Source of the DNA: Squalus acanthias
Lineage: Eukaryota
DNA: 64,000 bases
Assembly (NCBI GenBank): GCA_030390025.1
Contig: CM059432.1
Location: 60,638,001 to 60,702,000 of the forward strand
Reading direction: 5' to 3'
Below are positions 1-58,849 of this stretch, piece by piece (the stretch's first letter is position 1; every line of letters begins with the position of its first letter). Position numbers and translations under genes: made by a program. The notes beneath the pieces are model-generated. The model searched no databases. It had not been told where the DNA came from and saw only the letters and a list, made by a program, of their open reading frames with translations.

Positions 1-113
1 GATGTCAGCAGCCAGTGAATGTTCATCATGTGCATAATGGTATCTGTACCCATTATTCATAAATGTGAGAAGTCGCACAACACCAGGTTATAGTCCAACA
101 GCTTTATTTGAAA

Positions 114-150
114 TCACAAGCTTTCGGAGTGCTGCTCCTTCGTCAGGTGA
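114..150 (-). ncRNA. Minimal type I hammerhead ribozyme motif (Penelope pLTR)
   Basis: Minus strand reads UCAC-CUGACGA-A-GGAG(cagca)CUCC-GAAA-GCUU-GUGA, with palindromic AAGCUU as helix III. Confidence 0.85.
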
Positions 151-813
151 AGTGAAGAGATGCACATAGTCACAGCATATATAGTCAGAGAACACTGCCA
201 GATGATTACAGTTAATCTTTCCAACTACCCTTTATCACACCTCGGCAGAGAGATAATCACAGCAATCAAAGGTGTGGATGGTGTCCAAACAGGTCAGTCA
301 GGAAAACATTACATCAAAGACAATGTGGCAGATGCTGGGGTCTGTATGGAAAACAAAAAACTTTTTTTGCTGGAAATCACAGCAGGTCCGGCCGCATCTG
401 TGTAGAGAGAACAAGCCAACGCCGACTCGAGTCTGGATGACTCTACGTCAGGTGGGGTTACATGTAGCGTGACATAAACCCAAGATCCTGGTTGAGGCCG
501 TCCTCATGGGTGCGGAACTTGGCTATCAGTTTCTGCTCGACGATTTTGCGTTGTCGTGTGTCTCGAAGGCCACCTTGGAGAACGCTTACCCGAAGATCGG
601 AGGCTGAATGTCCTTGACTGCTGAATGTTCCCCGACTGAGAGGGAACACTCCTGCCTGGCGATTGTTGCGCGGTGTCCGTTCATACGTTGTCGCAGTGTC
701 TGCATGGTCTCGCCGATGTACCATGCTCCGGGGCATCCTTTCCTGCAATGTATGAGGTAGACAACGTTGGCCGAGTCACATGAGTATGTACCATGTACCT
801 GGTGGGTGGTGTC

Positions 814-2161
814 ATAGATACATAGATACATAGAAGATAGGAGCAGGAGTAGGCCATCCGGCCCTTCGAGCCTGCTCCGCCATTTAATGAGATCATGGCT
901 GATCCTCCAATTCAGTATCCCGTCCCCGCCTTCTCTCCGTAACCCTTAACCCCTTTTGCCTGTAGAAATATATCTAATTCCCTCTTAAATATATTTAATG
1001 AGCTGGCGTACACTGCCCTCTGTGGCAATGAGTTCCACAGGTTCACCACCCTCTGAGTGAAGAAATTCCCCCTCATTTCTGTCCTAAATGGTTTAGCCCT
1101 TATCCTTAAATTATGTCTTCTAGTTCTGTTCTCACCCGCCAAGGGAAACATTCCTTCTGCATCTAGTCTGTCTAGACCTGTCAGAATTTTATACACTTCT
1201 ATGAGGTCCCCTCTCAATCTTCTAAACTCCAGTGTGTACATCCCTAAACTACATAGTCTCTCCTCATAGGTCAATCCCGCCATTCCTGGTATCAGCCTGG
1301 TGAATCGCCGCTGCACCCCCTCCATGGCAAGAACATCTTTCCTCAGATGAGGCGACCAAAACTGTACACAGTACTCGAGGTGTGGTCTCACCAGTGCCCT
1401 GTACAGCTGCAGCAAGGTATCCCTGTTCCTGTTTTCCAACCCTTTTGCTATGAAGGCCAGCATACTGTTTGCCTTCTTGACCGCCTGTTGCACCTGCATG
1501 CTCGCCTTCAGTGACTGGTGTACAAGAACACCCAGGTCTCTCTGTACTTCCCCCTCTCCCAATTTATTGCCATTTAAATAATAATTTGCCCTCCCGTTCC
1601 TGCACCCAAGGTGGATAACTTCGCACTTGTCCACATTATAGTGCATCTGCCATTTATCCGCCCAATCACCCAGTCTGTCCAAATCGCTCTGGAGCTTCCT
1701 GGTCTCCTCCTCTGAGCCCACCCCCCCTCCTAGTTTAGTGTCGTCTGCAAATTTGGAAATGCTGCATCCGACTCCCTGATCCAGATCATTAATGTAAATT
1801 GTGAACAGCTGGGGACCCAGGACAGATCCCTGCGGTACCCCACTTGTTACTGCCTGCCATTCAGAAAATGAGCCGTTTATTCCAACTCTCTGTTTTCTAT
1901 CTGACAGCCAGTTCTCTATCCACGTCAATACTTTCCCCTTTATCCCATGCGCTTCAATTTTCCATGCTAATCTTTTATATGGGACCTTGTCGAAGGCCTT
2001 TTGGAAGTCCAGGTACACCACATCTACTGGCTCTCCCCCATCTATTTTACCAGTTACTCCCTCAAAAAATTCCAATAGATTAGTCAAGCACGATTTACCC
2101 TTTGTAAATCCATGTTGACTCTGTCCTATCCTGTCCCCATTTGCTAAGTGCTCCGCTATTT
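814..2161 (-). mobile_element. Young 5'-truncated CR1 LINE inserted in the Penelope ORF
   Basis: Uninterrupted 391-aa RT ORF 912-2087 (YLDFQKAFDKV, GVPQGSVLGP, KFADD) and (ctatgtat)n 3' tail. tgtc occurs at both junctions; the empty site is visible in the second Penelope copy near 31100. Confidence 0.95.
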
Positions 2162-2872
2162 TGTCCTCACGTGTGATGATGGTGTCTGTGTTTATGATCT
2201 GGCATGTCTTGCAGAGATTGCCGTGGCAGGGTTGTGCGGTGTCGTGGTCGCTGTTCTCCTGAAAGCTGTGTAATCTGCTGCGAACAATGGTCTGTTTGAG
2301 GTTAGGCAGCTGTTTGAAGGCGAGTACTGGGGGCGTGGGGGTGGCTTAGCGAGGTGTTCGTTGTCATCGATGACATGTTGAAGGCTGCGAAGAACATGGC
2401 GTAGTTTCTCCGCTCTGGGGAAGTACTGGACGATGTAGGAGCCCTGCGAATACACAGGATCTGCTCAGTCGAGGAGGAACGCGATGGACACCTACAGACG
2501 CTGAAAGACGCCCTCGTAAGAATGGGATATGACGCTCGACTCGTCGATCGACAGTTCCGACGGGCCACTGCGAAAAATCGCATAGACCTCCTCAGAAGAC
2601 AAACACGGGACACAACCAACAGAGTACCCTACCGGACCTGCTGTGATTTCCAGCAAAAAAAGTTTTTTGTTTTCCATACAGACCCCAGCATCTGCCACAT
2701 TGTCTTTGATGTAATATTTTCCTGACTGACCTGTTTGGACACCATCCACACCTTTGATTGCTGTGATTATCTCTCTGCCGAGGTGTGATAAAGGGCAGTT
2801 GGAAAGATTAACTGTAATCATCTGGCAGTGTTCTCTGACTATATATGCTGTGACTATGTGCATCTCTTCACT

Positions 2873-2909
2873 TCACCTGACAAAGGAGCAGCACTCCGAA
2901 AGCTTGTGA
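2873..2909 (+). ncRNA. Hammerhead motif in inverted pLTR, core mutated (CUGACAA)
   Basis: tcac-ctgacaa-aggagcagcactcc-gaaa-gctt-gtga; G8 to A relative to the 114-150 copy. Confidence 0.75.
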
Positions 2910-4880
2910 TTTCAAATAAAGCTGTTGGACTATAACCTGGTGTTGTGCGACTTCTCACATTTGTCCACCCCAGTCCAACACCGGCATCTCCACATCATTA
3001 TTCATAAGACATACCTAACTCATCTCTTTACTCTCCCACAGGTCCATCAAGAGCCCCCCCCGCTATCCAGGAGGAAGAGCAAGATGACTCCTCAGAGGAG
3101 CTTCCAACCTCTGAGGGTGCACCGTCACCAGACATAAGCACACCCAGCACCAGCGCAGATACTTACACCTCGGTGGGTGCCACGTGAGATAGAGTAGTGT
3201 TGTCACCTGATGTCTCACGACTCACAAGTGAGCAAGAGCAGATGGTGGAGACAGGGACAGCAGTGGAGAGGCCTTGCCGGAGGGTGCAGAACAATCCCAG
3301 CTCAGCTCAGCTGCATGCAGAGGCTGAGCCTCGGGACATCCAGAAAGAGGGCGTTCCTGCAGGTGCAGCAAGAAGTGCAGGAGGCTTTGACAGCTTTTGT
3401 GACCGCGATGTCTGCAAATGTCCAGAGAATGGAGAAGTCCATCTCCAACAGGCGATGGCGACTGTAGGCTCTTCCATGGATAGGATGGCCACCTGCATGG
3501 AGCAGCTAATGCACCACTCACAGAGCACATGGTCTCTATGGAGAATAGATGGCAGAGGTTCATAGACGTCCTCTGTAGGAGGGATATTAATGTAGAAATG
3601 GATCCTCATGGCCCCACTGCTCTGCAGCAAGGTGCTCGCCCCCTCCTTGCTAGCAGGGAAGTGCGGCTGGCCCATGAGAGGGATGATGGTGAGAGGGGAT
3701 TTGCAAGTGGGGGCTCCTCTCAATGCGCTCCCACTTTGCCCCCATTGCCCTCCCCTCGGTCAGAGCTGCAGATGCCTCCTCGGATCGCGATGGCCGAGTC
3801 TGCCCCTGCACAGCCGCAGGAGGAGCAGTCTTTGGCGGGGCCATCACAAGCTCCAAAAACCAGAGGACTTCTGCCAAAAGTGTCTGTGCAGTCGCAGCAG
3901 GGAAGTGAGCAGGCTGCCTCTACCTCTGCTGAAGCCACAGGGGTAGCACCTTGTAGAAGTACGCGTAAGTGAAAGATGAAACACAAGTAGATTCACAAGG
4001 GTAGCCAGTTGGATGTTTTATTAAATGTTTCTGTAAAGTTTCCGTTACTGTGATGTCACAGATAAAAATATTTATTTTCACCAATTTCACCATCATGGAC
4101 AGACTTGTGTGCACCTATGGAAATGGCTGAATGAGTTGGAGTGAATGATCAGAAATTACGTTACCTCCAGCAATGGTGGTCAGTGTGAAAGGAATGGCTT
4201 GGTCATTGTAGGGATGCTTTATGGTGTTGCTGTAGGTTGGTGCCAACCTGGCACAGCATGTGGCAGCCATATGGGTGTAATGTGTAAAGTTAAGCAAATC
4301 TGGCCATGATAAGCCTATCCCATGTCTCCTGGGCAGCAATGTGCTCAAGTGCTGGCGGGATCTGGATCGCAGGTTCCTCCTCCTCCACCTCATCTTCTCA
4401 TTGATGCTACTACTCCTCCTCCTCTGAAGAGCCTGTGCACTCAGAGCCTTGCTCCTCATGCAGCGCTAATCCTTGCTGCGGCACTATGTTGTGCTGGGCG
4501 CAGCAGACCACGACGATTCTGGAGACCCTGCTGGTGCGTACTGAAGGGCTCCTCCAGATCTGTCAAGGCATCTGAAGCGCATTTTCAGCATGCCTATTGT
4601 CTGCTCTATGACACATCTTGTGGAAATATGGCTTTCATTTTATATCTCTCCTGAGCCTCAGTACTTCTCAAGGATGTCATGAGCCATGTCTTCAGTGAAT
4701 AGCCCTTGTCTCCAAGCAGCCAGCCGGAAAGTCTGTTCAGAGGAATGAGGAGCTGAGGGAGGGTGGACAGTCGCAGGACCAAAGAATCATGACAGCTGCC
4801 AGGGAAATTTGCGCACACATGCATGATGATCTTACTATAGTTGCAGACGAGTTGCACATTGAGGGAGTGGAAACCCTTGC

Positions 4881-29879: not shown

Positions 29880-30060
29880 TACAAGTGCAAGTACAGAGCA
29901 ACAGACGTAATCAAATCTCATCTTGATTCCACTAACTGCAAAACCCTTCTTGAAAAGAAGAAAAGTAACAAACAAAAATGCTACACTATCCCTATCCGTG
30001 GGCTCGCTTATCTTTTCCTGGTCAAACTTCTGACCGTGCCTGAATCTAGATTTGAGATGA

Positions 30061-30159
30061 TGCGTATTTCTTCACTTCACCTGACGAAGTAGCAGCCGCT
30101 CCGAAAGCTTGTGATTTCAAATAAAACTGTTGGACTATAACCTGGTGTTGTGCGACTTC
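30061..30159 (+). mobile_element. ~100-bp Penelope terminus consisting of a hammerhead motif (30077-30114) plus 3' end
   Basis: tcac-ctgacga-agtagcagccgctcc-gaaa-gctt-gtga; 16-bp direct repeat tctagatttgagatga at 30045-30060 and 30160-30175. Confidence 0.88.
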
Positions 30160-30423
30160 TCTAGATTTGAGATGAGTGAGTTTTCCCTTGCTAGCCCAAG
30201 CTTATGTGCCCCTTTTTCCCTTTCTCTGTTTTCTCAGGAGGGCCGTCCCTCTGACTCCTTCCCTAATTAGTAGGTTTGTCAGTAAAACCAGCTACCTCTC
30301 CTCCCTCCTTAGGGCGCAGGTTTAAAGAAAGGGGGACAACACCTCCTGCTATTATCAATGAATAGCGGCCATCCAAGCTTATTGGGATGAGACAATGCAT
30401 CCTCATTGTATCAGTTTGATATA

Positions 30424-31487
30424 AATGAGAAGTCGCACAACACCAGGTTATAGTCCAACAGATTTATTTAAAATTACAAGCTTTCGGAGCTGTCGCTCCT
30501 TCTTCAGGTAGGGTAGCTGTGAGAGAATCTCCCAGAATTCACAATATAAACACAGAAAAAATGTAGTCAAATCTTTCCCTACATCAAAGACACACTAAGA
30601 GCACAGCCAAGACAATGAGATGTGTCCCAGGGGGTCCAACGTGTCAAAACACCTGCTGGCTGCATATCCTCTCCATTTGTGTTTGGTTCTTGTGTTAGTT
30701 TTTTTTTAAAAAAACCTGGAAAGACCGGCCATGATGTCAAGTCACGTTCTGTATCGTGACATGAACCCGATATCGCGATTGAGGCCATCCTCATGAGTGC
30801 GGAACTTGGCTATCAGTTTCTGCTCTATGATTTTGCGCTGTCGTGTATCCCGAAGGCCGCCTTGGAGAACGCTTACCCGCAGATCCGAGGCTGAATGCCC
30901 CTGGCTGCTGAAGTGTTCCCCGACTGGGAGGCAACCCTCCTGCCTGGCGATTGTTGCGCGGTGTCCGTTCATACGTTGTCTCAGTGTCTGCATGGTCTCG
31001 CCGATGTACCATGCTCTGGGGCATCCTTTACTGCAACGTATCAGGTAGACAACGTTGGCCGAGTCACATGAGTATGTACCATGTACCTGGTGGGTAGTGT
31101 CCTCACGTGTGATGATGGTATCTGTGTCCATGATCTGGCATGTCTTGCAGAGGTTGCCGTGGCAGGGTTGTGTGGTGTCGTGGTTGCTGTTCTCCTGAAA
31201 GATGGGTAATCTGCTGCGAACGATGGTACTTTTGAGGTTAGGCAGCTGCTTGAAGGCAAGTAGTGGAGGCGTGGGGATGGCCTTAGCAAGGTGTTCGTCG
31301 TCATCGATGACATGTTGAAGGCTGCGAAGAACATGGCGTAGTTTTTCCGCTCCGGGGAAGTACTGACGACGTAGGGTACTCTGTTGGTTGTGTCCCGTGT
31401 TCATCTTCTGAGGAGGTCTATGCGGTTTTTCGCTGTGGCCCGTCGGAACTGTCGATCGACGAGTCGAGCGTCATATCCCGTTCTTAC
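30424..31487 (-). mobile_element. 5'-truncated Penelope-like element with open GIY-YIG endonuclease region
   Basis: ORF 30742-31404 (CHGNLCKTC...NVVYLIRC...YIGET...EQKLI...GLNRD); TSD gtttgatata at 30414-30423 and 31488-31497. Confidence 0.93.
30475..30510 (-). ncRNA. Minimal hammerhead ribozyme motif
   Basis: Minus strand reads UAC-CUGAAGA-A-GGAGC(gaca)GCUCC-GAAA-GCUU-GUA. Confidence 0.85.
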
Positions 31488-31784
31488 GTTTGATATAGGC
31501 TGTGAGCTGTGACATTCCACAAACTGGCTCATCTGGGTTTAATACACATCTTCAGCACCTGTAGCCTATGGCTTTTTTTTAAATGTGCACATTTACTTTA
31601 TTTTGAAACATATTTAAACATGGTTCATTCCAAATCCTTTTTTGTAAAGAAATAAAAAATCCCAAAATGTGACAGGATGTTATGAACAACAACAGGTGGT
31701 GGTACACCTACTTAGTTACTTTTTATATCTACGTAATTTTTTATTCATATTTTATCCCCAGTGCCAGTGGTGAAAAGCATAATT

Positions 31785-45654: not shown

Positions 45655-45845
45655 CACAAAAACAAAAATTGTTGGAAATACACATTGAGTTAGTTAGCAT
45701 CTGAAAGTAAACCGGTTAATGGTTACAGTAGAAACCCTTTGTCAGAATGGCATAAACCAACTTCTCTTTCAGATGCTGACTAACCTGCTATGTATTCCAA
45801 GCATTTCCTTATTTTTATTTCAGGTGTCCCAACACTCGTGTTTTG
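45655..45845. mobile_element. Decayed inverted Penelope pLTR pair
   Basis: gttagttagcatctgaaag versus ctttcagatgctgactaac; resembles 55808-55935. Confidence 0.55.
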
Positions 45846-55807: not shown

Positions 55808-56237
55808 CAAAAATACTGCGGATGCTGGAAATCTGAAATAAAAACAGAAAATGCTGGATACTCAGCAGGTCAGGCAGCATCTGTGGAGAGAGAAACAGAG
55901 TTAACGTTTCAGGTCGATGACCCTTCGTCAGAACTAGAAAAAGCTGGAGAGGGAACAGGTTTTTAAGCAAGTGTAGGGGCAGGGATTGCCATTTACACTT
56001 CATCTAGAGCCATCTTTTGTTTCTTAACTTGTCCCATTACCATCTCCTTTTGCCTTGCACCATCATCCCTTTTGTCTCTTAATCTCTCCTGCCTTCCATC
56101 CTATCACAGGCCTTCCCTTTTGTTCTTTCCTCCCCTCCCCCCTTTCCCTGCCCCGACACTTGCTTAAAATCCTGTTCTATCTCCAGCTTTTTCCAGTTCT
56201 GACGAAGGATCATCGACTTGAAACGTTAACTCTGTTT
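55808..56237. mobile_element. Non-coding Penelope pLTR insertion (second family) with two oppositely oriented hammerhead motifs
   Basis: Hammerheads at 55899-55935 (-) and 56195-56231 (+): agtt-ctgacga-stem-gaaa-cgtt-aact. ~95-bp inverted repeat; TSD ctgacacctaaca at 55795-55807 and 56238-56250. Confidence 0.88.
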
Positions 56238-56699: not shown

Positions 56700-58849
56700 G
56701 GGCTAAAAATTCGGGGGCTTTACGCCACCCGTTACCGTCAAGAAATCACGGAAAGAGGGCAGCCGCCACTCTTTCGCCAGCTGGTGGCAGGTCACGCGGC
56801 ATCCTCCATTTTTCTCGGCCTGGCAGTGTTACTGGTAAGATGCATCACCCTGCAAAGTAAAATGAGGGAGTGGTGACATCACCGCCGATTTAGCGTCACC
56901 ACGGCAAACTTGGACCTTCGCACTGAGTTCAGCGCTGGGTCCTAAGCTCACCATGTAAACCCAGCATGCAAGCAGACTCACAGAGGCACTGTCACCTCTT
57001 AAAGGGACACACACAGCTTTCAGCTAAGTTTTCATTTAAGCTTTTAGACTGGATTTCTTTTTGATCTTACTGAAGTAGTGGTTTGCTGTAATAGATGTTA
57101 AGTTTTTTAAGTGTGTAGGGAGTGCTGCTGGATGCTTGCAAGGCCTCGGATGGTAAAGAAAGGCCTCTGAGAAGACAGAAAAAGCTGCAAATACTCAGCA
57201 GGTCTGGCAACATCCATGGAGAGAGAAACGGAGTTCACTTCTCAGGTGCCTGAGCCGCTGAGTATTTCCAGCATTTTATGCTGTCATTTCAGATTTACAA
57301 CATCTACTCGCAGAAAGAAGAGGAAGGAAGGATGCAACCCAGACAGCCCCTTTTTGGCCGGGATATCCGGAATGGAATCATCCGCCTGCGGTCCCTCTGA
57401 CCACAACCCCAATTCCTCTTTCAACATTTGTCCCACACCTTACCTTCCCTTTGTTACTGACCATCACAGTGTCGTCTTGGCCACAATGCTGAAATAAAAG
57501 CCACCACAAAGCAAACTTTCCAATCCAACTTTATATATCTATCCATCCAATATGACAACAAGCAATCAACTCATCACCCTTAAGCATTCTCTTAGTGACT
57601 GTCTTGTGTGTGCCTTTGCCTATCCTACTGATGTCACGCAGTGCTACCCCAGTGGCTGCAGCAGGGCTGGTGGGGCACTGCAAATGTTCTTCTTCTTCTC
57701 CTACTTCTCCTCTCCTCCTCTCGCCCCTCTCCTCCTCTCGCCCCTCTCCTCCTCTCGCCCCTCTCCTCCTCTCGCCCCTCTCCTCCTCTCGCCCCTCTCC
57801 TCCTCTCGCCCCTCTCCTCCTCTCGCCCCTCTTCTTGGCCAACCACTGCGTGTGTGAAATGAGGAAGGCACATGGGTGGAATTGTGGTGAGGGGAAGGTG
57901 GGAAAGCAAGAGGTGCATGCCAGAAGGAGGATAACGTATGAGGATGCCAGCATCTTGTCTCCTTTCTGCACCGCCGCTGGCCAAGGGCTCAGCCATGCCC
58001 TTGCCAAGAATGGCCTGCACCATCTCCTCCAAGGGGGTGAGGTGAGGCTAGGAATGGGAGATGTACCTCGTGATTGGTACAGATTGTTGGTAGATGAGTG
58101 ATGGGGGAGTGGGGGGGAGTCGTGCATTGAGCAATGCGTGAGGCTAGTGGAGCAGTTGGTAGGAGACGGCTTTTGAAGATACATTCACTGACCTTGACCA
58201 GTGGTCTGAGGTCATGAAGCTTCTTTGGGCACTGGAGCCAGGTGGTGTGGGCGACACTGCTGGCAGTGACGGCCTCAGTGATGTGGTCCCACATCGTTTT
58301 TTCTGGACGGCCTCCTGGCCTCTGTGAGTGGAGGATCTCTCTTGCAGTGTTGACCCCCTGCACAAAGCTGGAGTGTTGCGTGCGAGACCCTGGGTGCCCC
58401 TTCCCTGGCTTGCTGAGCCATTTGTTTTTGTGCTGAAACACTTTCCCATTTTTTGAGGTTCAGAAGGAAATTCAGCTTTAAGTGCTGTAGACTCCCATTC
58501 TTTTTAATGTAATTTTTTTTTTAAAGGCAGTAAGGGCTGAAAACTGCATTTTTTCACTTCATTTTATTTTTTATTAGTTCATAAGGCATTTCCCACAATT
58601 CCTAGCAAATTCCATAGCCTCTCTTCCAGAGGCTGTTAGAAGCTGGAACGACTCTTCGGGACAGGCACTTTGACGCCCATGCCTGCACTAATCCCACCAG
58701 GAGGGCGTTACATGGTAAGTTAGCACTGAGCTAAAAATCTTTAGCCCCCAGCGCAAATTTTTCCCTGGTAGCGCTTCATCCATTTTCAGCGGTCATTAAC
58801 CCGAGAGTTGCCGGTGACCCTGTTGTGGCGGCCACAAATTTTTCCTCCC
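56700..58849 (-). mobile_element. Non-autonomous Harbinger element with decayed Myb/SANT exon
   Basis: TSD tta at 56697-56699 and 58850-58852; imperfect TIRs gggctaaaaatt and aatttttcctccc; REILH...WDHITEAV...TWLQCPKKLHDL (57989-58441). Confidence 0.75.
57709..57827 (+). repeat. Minisatellite (cctctcctcctctcgcc)x7
   Basis: Seven perfect 17-bp units read directly. Confidence 0.95.

Follow-up and report, generated by a model that had tools for sequence, protein, structure and literature searches.

In Adineta vaga, copies of the Penelope-like element (PLE) Pen1_Av that are 90% identical carry unrelated spacers of 0.9-1.5 kb between the ORF and the 3' pseudo-LTR (pLTR), and captured host DNA was proposed as the origin of these spacers (PMC3846280). 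The same paper describes a TATA/TCACT pair in the pLTRs of Pen2a_Av, also from a rotifer, and the Penelope pLTR is known to contain the transcription start (PMC8557442). Neptune and Nematis elements are marked by a Cx4CxxC linker ahead of the GIY-YIG domain (PMC8557442). Reverse transcription of an anole PLE begins within the RNA just past the hammerhead, its tail sits between the two start sites, and its protein cuts its own ORF-pLTR junction target in vitro (PMC11167929). Minimal type-I hammerheads of the kind used below are described in PMC4209133, and animal retrozymes have been linked to pLTRs (preprint 10.64898/2026.07.22.740005). Coexisting families of mouse L1 recruit non-homologous promoters, and inter-family recombination has been reported among them (PMC3600994).

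We analyzed a window of 64,000 nucleotides from Squalus acanthias (contig CM059432.1 of GCA_030390025.1, forward-strand positions 60,638,001 to 60,702,000). The window contains three insertions of one PLE family flanked by target-site duplications (TSDs): copy 1 (61-2995), copy 2 (30424-31487) and a solo terminus (30061-30159). Chance matches between 296 random window pairs reached at most 9 bp. The two larger copies share their ORF end and their hammerhead-bearing terminus but not the segment between stop codon and hammerhead, which we call the spacer. Our favored reading, held with moderate confidence, is that the spacer is a promoter-bearing, non-coding part of the pLTR whose sequence turns over as foreign DNA is captured now and then past the stop codon and deletion and fast drift set in afterward.

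Table 1. Coordinates of the PLE insertions and of family B within the window.
Feature	Position	Strand	Description
Copy 2 ORF	30745-31487	-	5'-truncated PLE; RT thumb end, Cx4CxxC zinc-finger-like linker and GIY-YIG endonuclease; frameshift near 31370; stop TGA 30742-30744, after GFMSRYRT; 85% identity to P0003 by tblastn
Spacer 2	30511-30741	-	231 nt; subfamily-level, multi-copy
Copy 2 terminus	30424-30510	-	minimal type-I hammerhead motif, core start 30507; AATAAA; conserved end
Copy 2 TSD (likely)	30414-30423		10 bp; second copy 31488-31497
Copy 1 ORF fragment	458-2439	-	LINE-type RT fragment inside (~814-2161); stop TAA 458-460, after GFMSRYM
Spacer 1	151-457	-	307 nt
Family-B-like piece of spacer 1	306-451	-	clear to ~330, weak to 306
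Copy 1 terminus	61-150	-	intact minimal hammerhead motif, core start 146
Copy 1 inverted 5' arm	2440-2995	+	ORF piece 2440-2632; 99% copy of 391-61; ~35-nt tail
Copy 1 whole-unit TSD	51-62 / 2996-3007		12 bp
Solo terminus, spacer-1 type	30061-30159	+	~20 nt of spacer plus hammerhead end
Solo terminus TSD	30045-30060 / 30160-30175		16 bp
Family B inverted pair	55808-56237		hammerhead-bearing termini, cores 55931 (-) and 56199 (+); 13-bp TSD

Because a single TSD encloses the whole copy 1 unit, both of its arms likely represent one insertion event. The two spacer-1 copies within the window lie inside this common TSD and were rejected as independent evidence. In copy 1, the inverted ORF piece stops exactly where the main ORF piece starts, and the sequence then jumps midway into the part of spacer 1 that resembles family B; this layout suggests that a single event produced both a 5' inversion and an inverted pLTR. 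The LINE-type RT fragment within the copy 1 ORF (814-2161, Pfam RVT_1) has no clear TSD and forms, together with the PLE part on the minus strand, one stop-free frame of 477 amino acids. The solo terminus and the copy 2 terminus are independent TSD-flanked insertions placed tail to tail about 265 bp apart. Besides the inverted pair, further family B fragments occur at 57172-57304 and 45770-45829.

Several features place the shark copies among EN+ PLEs. The closest protein relatives of the copy 2 ORF were shark gene models with at most 92% identity (124 matches among 375 candidates), and its GIY-YIG endonuclease is C-terminal, lying 3' of the RT. Pfam gave no direct GIY-YIG match on the window ORF; among its homologs, P0054 and P0059 carry PF01541, P0111 and P0112 carry PF00078, and the motif VYLI..YIGET is conserved. 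Both copies contain CHGNLCKTC, which agrees with the CX2-5CxxC linker of Neptune and Nematis described in PMC8557442, and the RT core is absent from the copies in the window. The layout is that of EN+ PLEs as well, with an inverted arm (2440-2995) ending in a tail, 5' truncation, and TSDs of 12, 10 and 16 bp. Scanning with protein profiles recovered at least one locus from 597 candidate stretches in metagenomes and none from 600 candidate stretches in prokaryote genomes; patterns built on the terminus had no match in viral contigs or in metagenome contigs. The metagenome contig L001, with 56% protein identity to the shark PLE, is laid out as stop codon, about 275 nt, hammerhead, similar terminus and tail. 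Its terminus and tail (L001:709-1100) are recognizable as similar at the DNA level and lack the AATAAA present in the window termini.

The initial annotation had described the conserved end as a ribozyme terminus, a label that held at 146 and 30507 by the minimal type-I hammerhead pattern and failed in Rfam, which found no hammerhead in the window at gathering score. The pattern also matched at 55931, 56199 and in L001, its four window hits comparing with one hit in 20 shuffled windows combined. The solo terminus and the inverted arm fail it through point changes. Different bases make up stems I and II in copy 1, copy 2 and L001 yet still pair, and the maintained pairing of stem I points to selection on the fold. 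Predicted energies for six hammerhead-region stretches were no better than those of shuffles (z -0.24 to 0.29), and therefore folding lends no support to a ribozyme. We regard the ribozyme as putative, identified by its minimal-hammerhead pattern. Internal initiation of the kind described for the anole element would be a sufficient reason for a conserved terminus.

As the initial annotation had stated, the copies are alike on both sides of the spacer. Identity is 91.5% over 352 nt between the ORF ends (463-813 versus 30750-31101) and 90.1% over 91 nt between the termini (59-148 versus 30421-30509), and it breaks off within 3 nt of the final codon in common and, at the other end, some 4 nt ahead of the hammerhead core. 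The further claim that the spacers have no visible similarity was correct for blastn, which joined them by a single 13-nt word (E 0.5-0.7), and too strong for shuffling tests, which left a weak residue across the whole spacers (z=2.5, 6 of 500 shuffles as good). This residue was concentrated in the terminal 90-100 nt (18 of 1000 shuffles) rather than the middle (72 of 1000). Full-spacer comparison covered three spacers, of 231, ~275 and 307 nt. Spacer 1 scored z=2.6 against the spacer of the 56%-identical relative, and therefore a z of about 2.5 is no proof of close kinship.

We quantified the expected drift with a codon analysis of 204 codons (dS 0.24, dN 0.05) and neutral simulations (n=300). 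The low score of the spacer pair was reached in 0 of 300 simulations at dS, 1 of 300 at twice dS, and 47% at three times dS, with the caveat that dS may underestimate the neutral rate. The spacers thus need about three times the ORF divergence to be so unlike, and the near absence of such scores at dS and twice dS means that more than neutral drift occurred. An account in which the spacers are homologous except for a family-B insertion, and drifted at no less than three times the ORF synonymous rate with no wholesale replacement, is in our view unlikely. It would explain the in-register residual motifs of the last 100 nt and agrees with the simulations at three times dS, especially if dS is an underestimate. 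By eye, several of the loose ends discussed below (at 30510, 30598 and 30648) also resemble diverged sisters of spacer 2, although the two segments were not clearly brought into alignment through intermediates, an outcome that the initial annotation had named as counting against its reading. These sisters and the residue in the last 100 nt leave room for drift without replacement in that part of the spacer, which counts against our favored reading there. The simulations at dS and twice dS argue against this account, as do the non-aligning middle parts and the equally weak z obtained with a relative of only 56% identity.

Part of spacer 1 could be traced. Its first 120-145 nt or so align to the family B hammerhead terminus at 55808-55931 (z=13.5, 0 of 500 shuffles), with the homology setting in at the core of the hammerhead, 6 nt past the stop codon. 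This piece retains stem II, while stem I and the two core segments are disrupted. The initial annotation had missed this homology of part of 151-457 to a repeat in the same window. It had suggested host sequence as one possible cargo; the traced piece comes from another repeat family and no host gene. In line with its proposal of capture, at least one such event is visible in the family-B piece, and the spacers are too unlike for neutral drift at dS.

The broken piece is not private to the copy 1 locus: a copy-1-like ORF end runs into a variant of it on a contig whose depth is 48.6, against 2 for the flank. The altered second core segment recurs in this variant, which differs at 3 of 30 letters and, judged from coordinates, is shorter by about 17 nt. 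The frameshifted tail of gene model P0001 fits spacer 1 on either side of a net gap of some 70 nt, in which the hammerhead part is missing (24 nt or 8 codons compared, 3 mismatched; 0 of 300 shuffles did as well), a fit that we infer by back-translating the gene-model tail. The read-through tails of P0003, P0004, P0072 and P0024 match none of the three spacers past the first codons. From these sequence comparisons, we suggest that a 5'-truncated foreign terminus was captured, then lost its function and underwent stepwise deletion, and relatives appear to carry deleted versions of it. Family B itself has a hammerhead terminus motif, an inverted pair and a 13-bp TSD, and is likely another PLE by these features; tblastn with 6 of the 120 homologs found no ORF beside its copies in the window. 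A 9-nt word that includes the hammerhead core start recurs on the minus strand behind the copy 1 stop (443-451) and at the terminal hammerhead (143-151), which may be junction microhomology or chance.

Spacer 2 is not confined to one locus either. Contigs of four runs from four studies were aligned to 30190-31089 (11,765, 1,582, 78 and 2,162 contigs; the fourth run was labeled RNA by guess). Many variant contigs covered spacer 2 in all four runs, with seven variant positions inside it, including 30563 (22, 9, 5 and 11 contigs) and 30700 (25, 7, 1 and 8). This is at odds with one of the segments being a single-copy insertion, which the initial annotation had also listed as speaking against it. 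In one and the same run, contigs bridge the ORF and spacer 2 (30708-30817, with 2 differences in 110 nt) as well as spacer 2 and the terminus (30474-30562, with 0 differences in 89 nt). We therefore read the spacers as subfamily-level multi-copy segments. Summed contig depth over the element was orders of magnitude above the flank, a figure that does not measure copy number. In one of the four runs, this depth drops about threefold near 30610 (30580-30640) in an unexplained step that may reflect sister subfamilies having only the hammerhead-proximal half of spacer 2 in common. We make no claim that spacer 2 is common across species: two runs labeled with other organisms also cover the unique flank at 99-100%, and since this flank is nearly unchanged, the DNA in those runs may come from the same species or from a sister species.

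Neither blastn within the window nor Rfam pointed to a source of spacer 2 or of the distal half of spacer 1, and spacer 2 gave no alignment with family B. Three Rfam matches in 30400-30800 were far below gathering score and were taken as chance. An alternative frame reading into spacer 2 matched none of 3 candidates, a result that carries little weight.

The initial annotation had cast the segment between stop and hammerhead as 3' UTR cargo, whereas it looks like pLTR promoter sequence. A perfect TATAWAWR lies at -37 from the hammerhead core in spacer 1 and at -39 in L001, and TCACT lies at -9 and -10, respectively, against a background of about 0.4% per 10-nt slot. In spacer 2, there is an initiator-like TCACA at -15 from the core and, by eye, a weak TATA-like run near -45; no TATAWAWR with 0-1 mismatches was found near its hammerhead, and the two family-B upstream regions contain no perfect TATAWAWR. 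The segment is likely a promoter-bearing pLTR region rather than a passive 3' UTR. We go no further than likely because spacer 2 lacks a good TATA and family B a perfect one.

Turnover by capture could proceed as follows. In PLE tandems, the sequence past the stop codon would already belong to the following unit, at its 5' end. Were a 5'-truncated terminus to insert just behind the stop codon together with its upstream sequence, it would travel with the element, because reverse transcription would begin at the outermost terminus of the element's own family. Boundaries would then look fixed because any change that damaged the endonuclease or cut into the hammerhead/initiation site would fail to spread. 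Selection on these two parts would confine the surviving changes without any dedicated recombinase.

We next considered whether boundaries are in fact fixed. Among 24 of 481 loose ends, divergence points fell at 30489-30510 and 30733-30750 and, within the spacer, at 30569-30570, 30597-30598, 30648 and 30711; the remainder of these 24 lie at the outer element end, plus two inside the ORF. Divergence points in this set were spread, with no base-exact junction common to them. Both ORF-to-spacer contigs with difference counts have an ORF type matching their spacer type (2 differences in 110 nt for the spacer-2 contig and 9 in 79 nt for the spacer-1 contig, with copy 1 itself at 9 in 71 nt). No reciprocal combination of ORF and spacer was seen among 32 of 15,678 pieces, and two counted contigs are too few to exclude swaps. 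The idea of an exchange system with fixed boundaries, as put forward in the initial annotation, is not upheld by the divergence points of this set, which are spread and partly internal.

The spacers could also be old lineages whose ORF and terminus were homogenized later by inter-subfamily recombination, as in mouse L1, where such recombination is on record (PMC3600994). A tandem unit makes terminus and ORF one block, and both are diverged by about 9-10%, as this would predict; no mosaic ORF was seen, however, and the two counted junction contigs keep ORF type and spacer type together, so we consider homogenization quite improbable. We assign a still smaller chance to a dedicated modular system that swaps a functional cargo cassette, such as a regulatory or targeting RNA, at fixed boundaries. 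The abrupt loss of identity next to the last shared codon and the hammerhead core, the similar spacer lengths in three elements, and the 9-nt word at both ends of spacer 1 are all compatible with cassettes. Yet among the loose ends and pieces listed, breakpoints are spread, some are internal and no reciprocal combination appeared; moreover, spacer 2 has no matching boundary repeat by eye and no RNA family match, and the captured hammerhead is broken and undergoing deletion. Least credible of all is that one spacer is a private secondary insertion or replacement at a single locus. In its favor, the ORF of copy 1 contains a LINE insertion that looks private, the arms of copy 1 are likely one event, and one loose end, identical to 433-462, might stem from copy 1 itself. 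The variant contigs in all four runs, however, largely refute this for spacer 2, while the family-B piece occurs in a second haplotype (the contig of depth 48.6 versus flank 2) and an independent solo insertion has the spacer 1 end.

The unlikeness of the spacers is a real feature and a variation on known PLE behavior; a dedicated cargo swap is unlikely, and nothing here suggests a mobile or programmable system of a new class. Capture has left a concrete trace past the stop codon in the fixed, broken family-B hammerhead. If spacer turnover amounts to promoter turnover, these abundant repeats form a large natural data set on how PLE subfamilies originate and coexist, and on whether the ORF-pLTR junction is a preferred site of new copies in vivo. 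A bolder version, which we entertain only as a long shot, holds that shark PLE subfamilies renew the pLTR promoter as a module, with foreign termini, including those of other PLE families, homing to the ORF-pLTR junction. If that were true, regulatory sequence would pass between unrelated ribozyme-ended families, and a single protein lineage would be served by several parallel promoter classes, as the PLE counterpart of L1 promoter recruitment.

A search of mainly non-subscription literature, main texts only and outside Repbase, listed no paper in which spacers of shark PLEs turn over or hammerhead termini are nested in them, and the shark spacer subfamilies may already be catalogued. Compared with the EN+ PLEs with a zinc-finger linker (PMC8557442), the shark elements are alike in the linker and C-terminal GIY-YIG endonuclease, 5' truncation, the inverted pLTR arm, the optional tail and a hammerhead motif within the pLTR. 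No structural difference was detected, the likeness being by linker since the window has no RT core. The inverted arm and tail of copy 1 match the arrangement described for Pen2a_Av in PMC3846280. PAc (Poseidon_Ac) of PMC11167929 likewise has a hammerhead followed by a conserved terminus and tail, and AT-rich targets. It belongs to the Poseidon clade and its ORF starts inside its hammerhead, whereas the shark ORF start was not located, and spacer turnover is no topic of the accessible text of that paper.

The L1 5' UTR recruitment of PMC3600994 resembles the shark case in that families with related ORFs coexist although their promoter regions are non-homologous, the shark promoter being inferred. 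The L1 promoter is at the 5' end, while the pLTR arrangement puts its PLE equivalent past the stop codon. Pen1_Av, as described in PMC3846280, also consists of EN+ PLE copies that are about 90% identical with no detectable spacer similarity, and the shark copies show the same combination, with a weak residue near the 3' end of their non-alignable spacers. The initial annotation had seen an undescribed modular system here, although unrelated spacers between 90%-identical copies were already on record for Pen1_Av in that paper. Spacers of Pen1_Av are 0.9-1.5 kb, unique to each copy and attributed to the host, whereas those of the shark measure 231 and 307 nt, spacer 2 at least being multi-copy, and we do not class the shark case as a member because the length and uniqueness features fail. 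Unlike those of Pen1_Av, the shark spacers reach the hammerhead and include the TATA/initiator region, and their traced piece comes from another repeat family.
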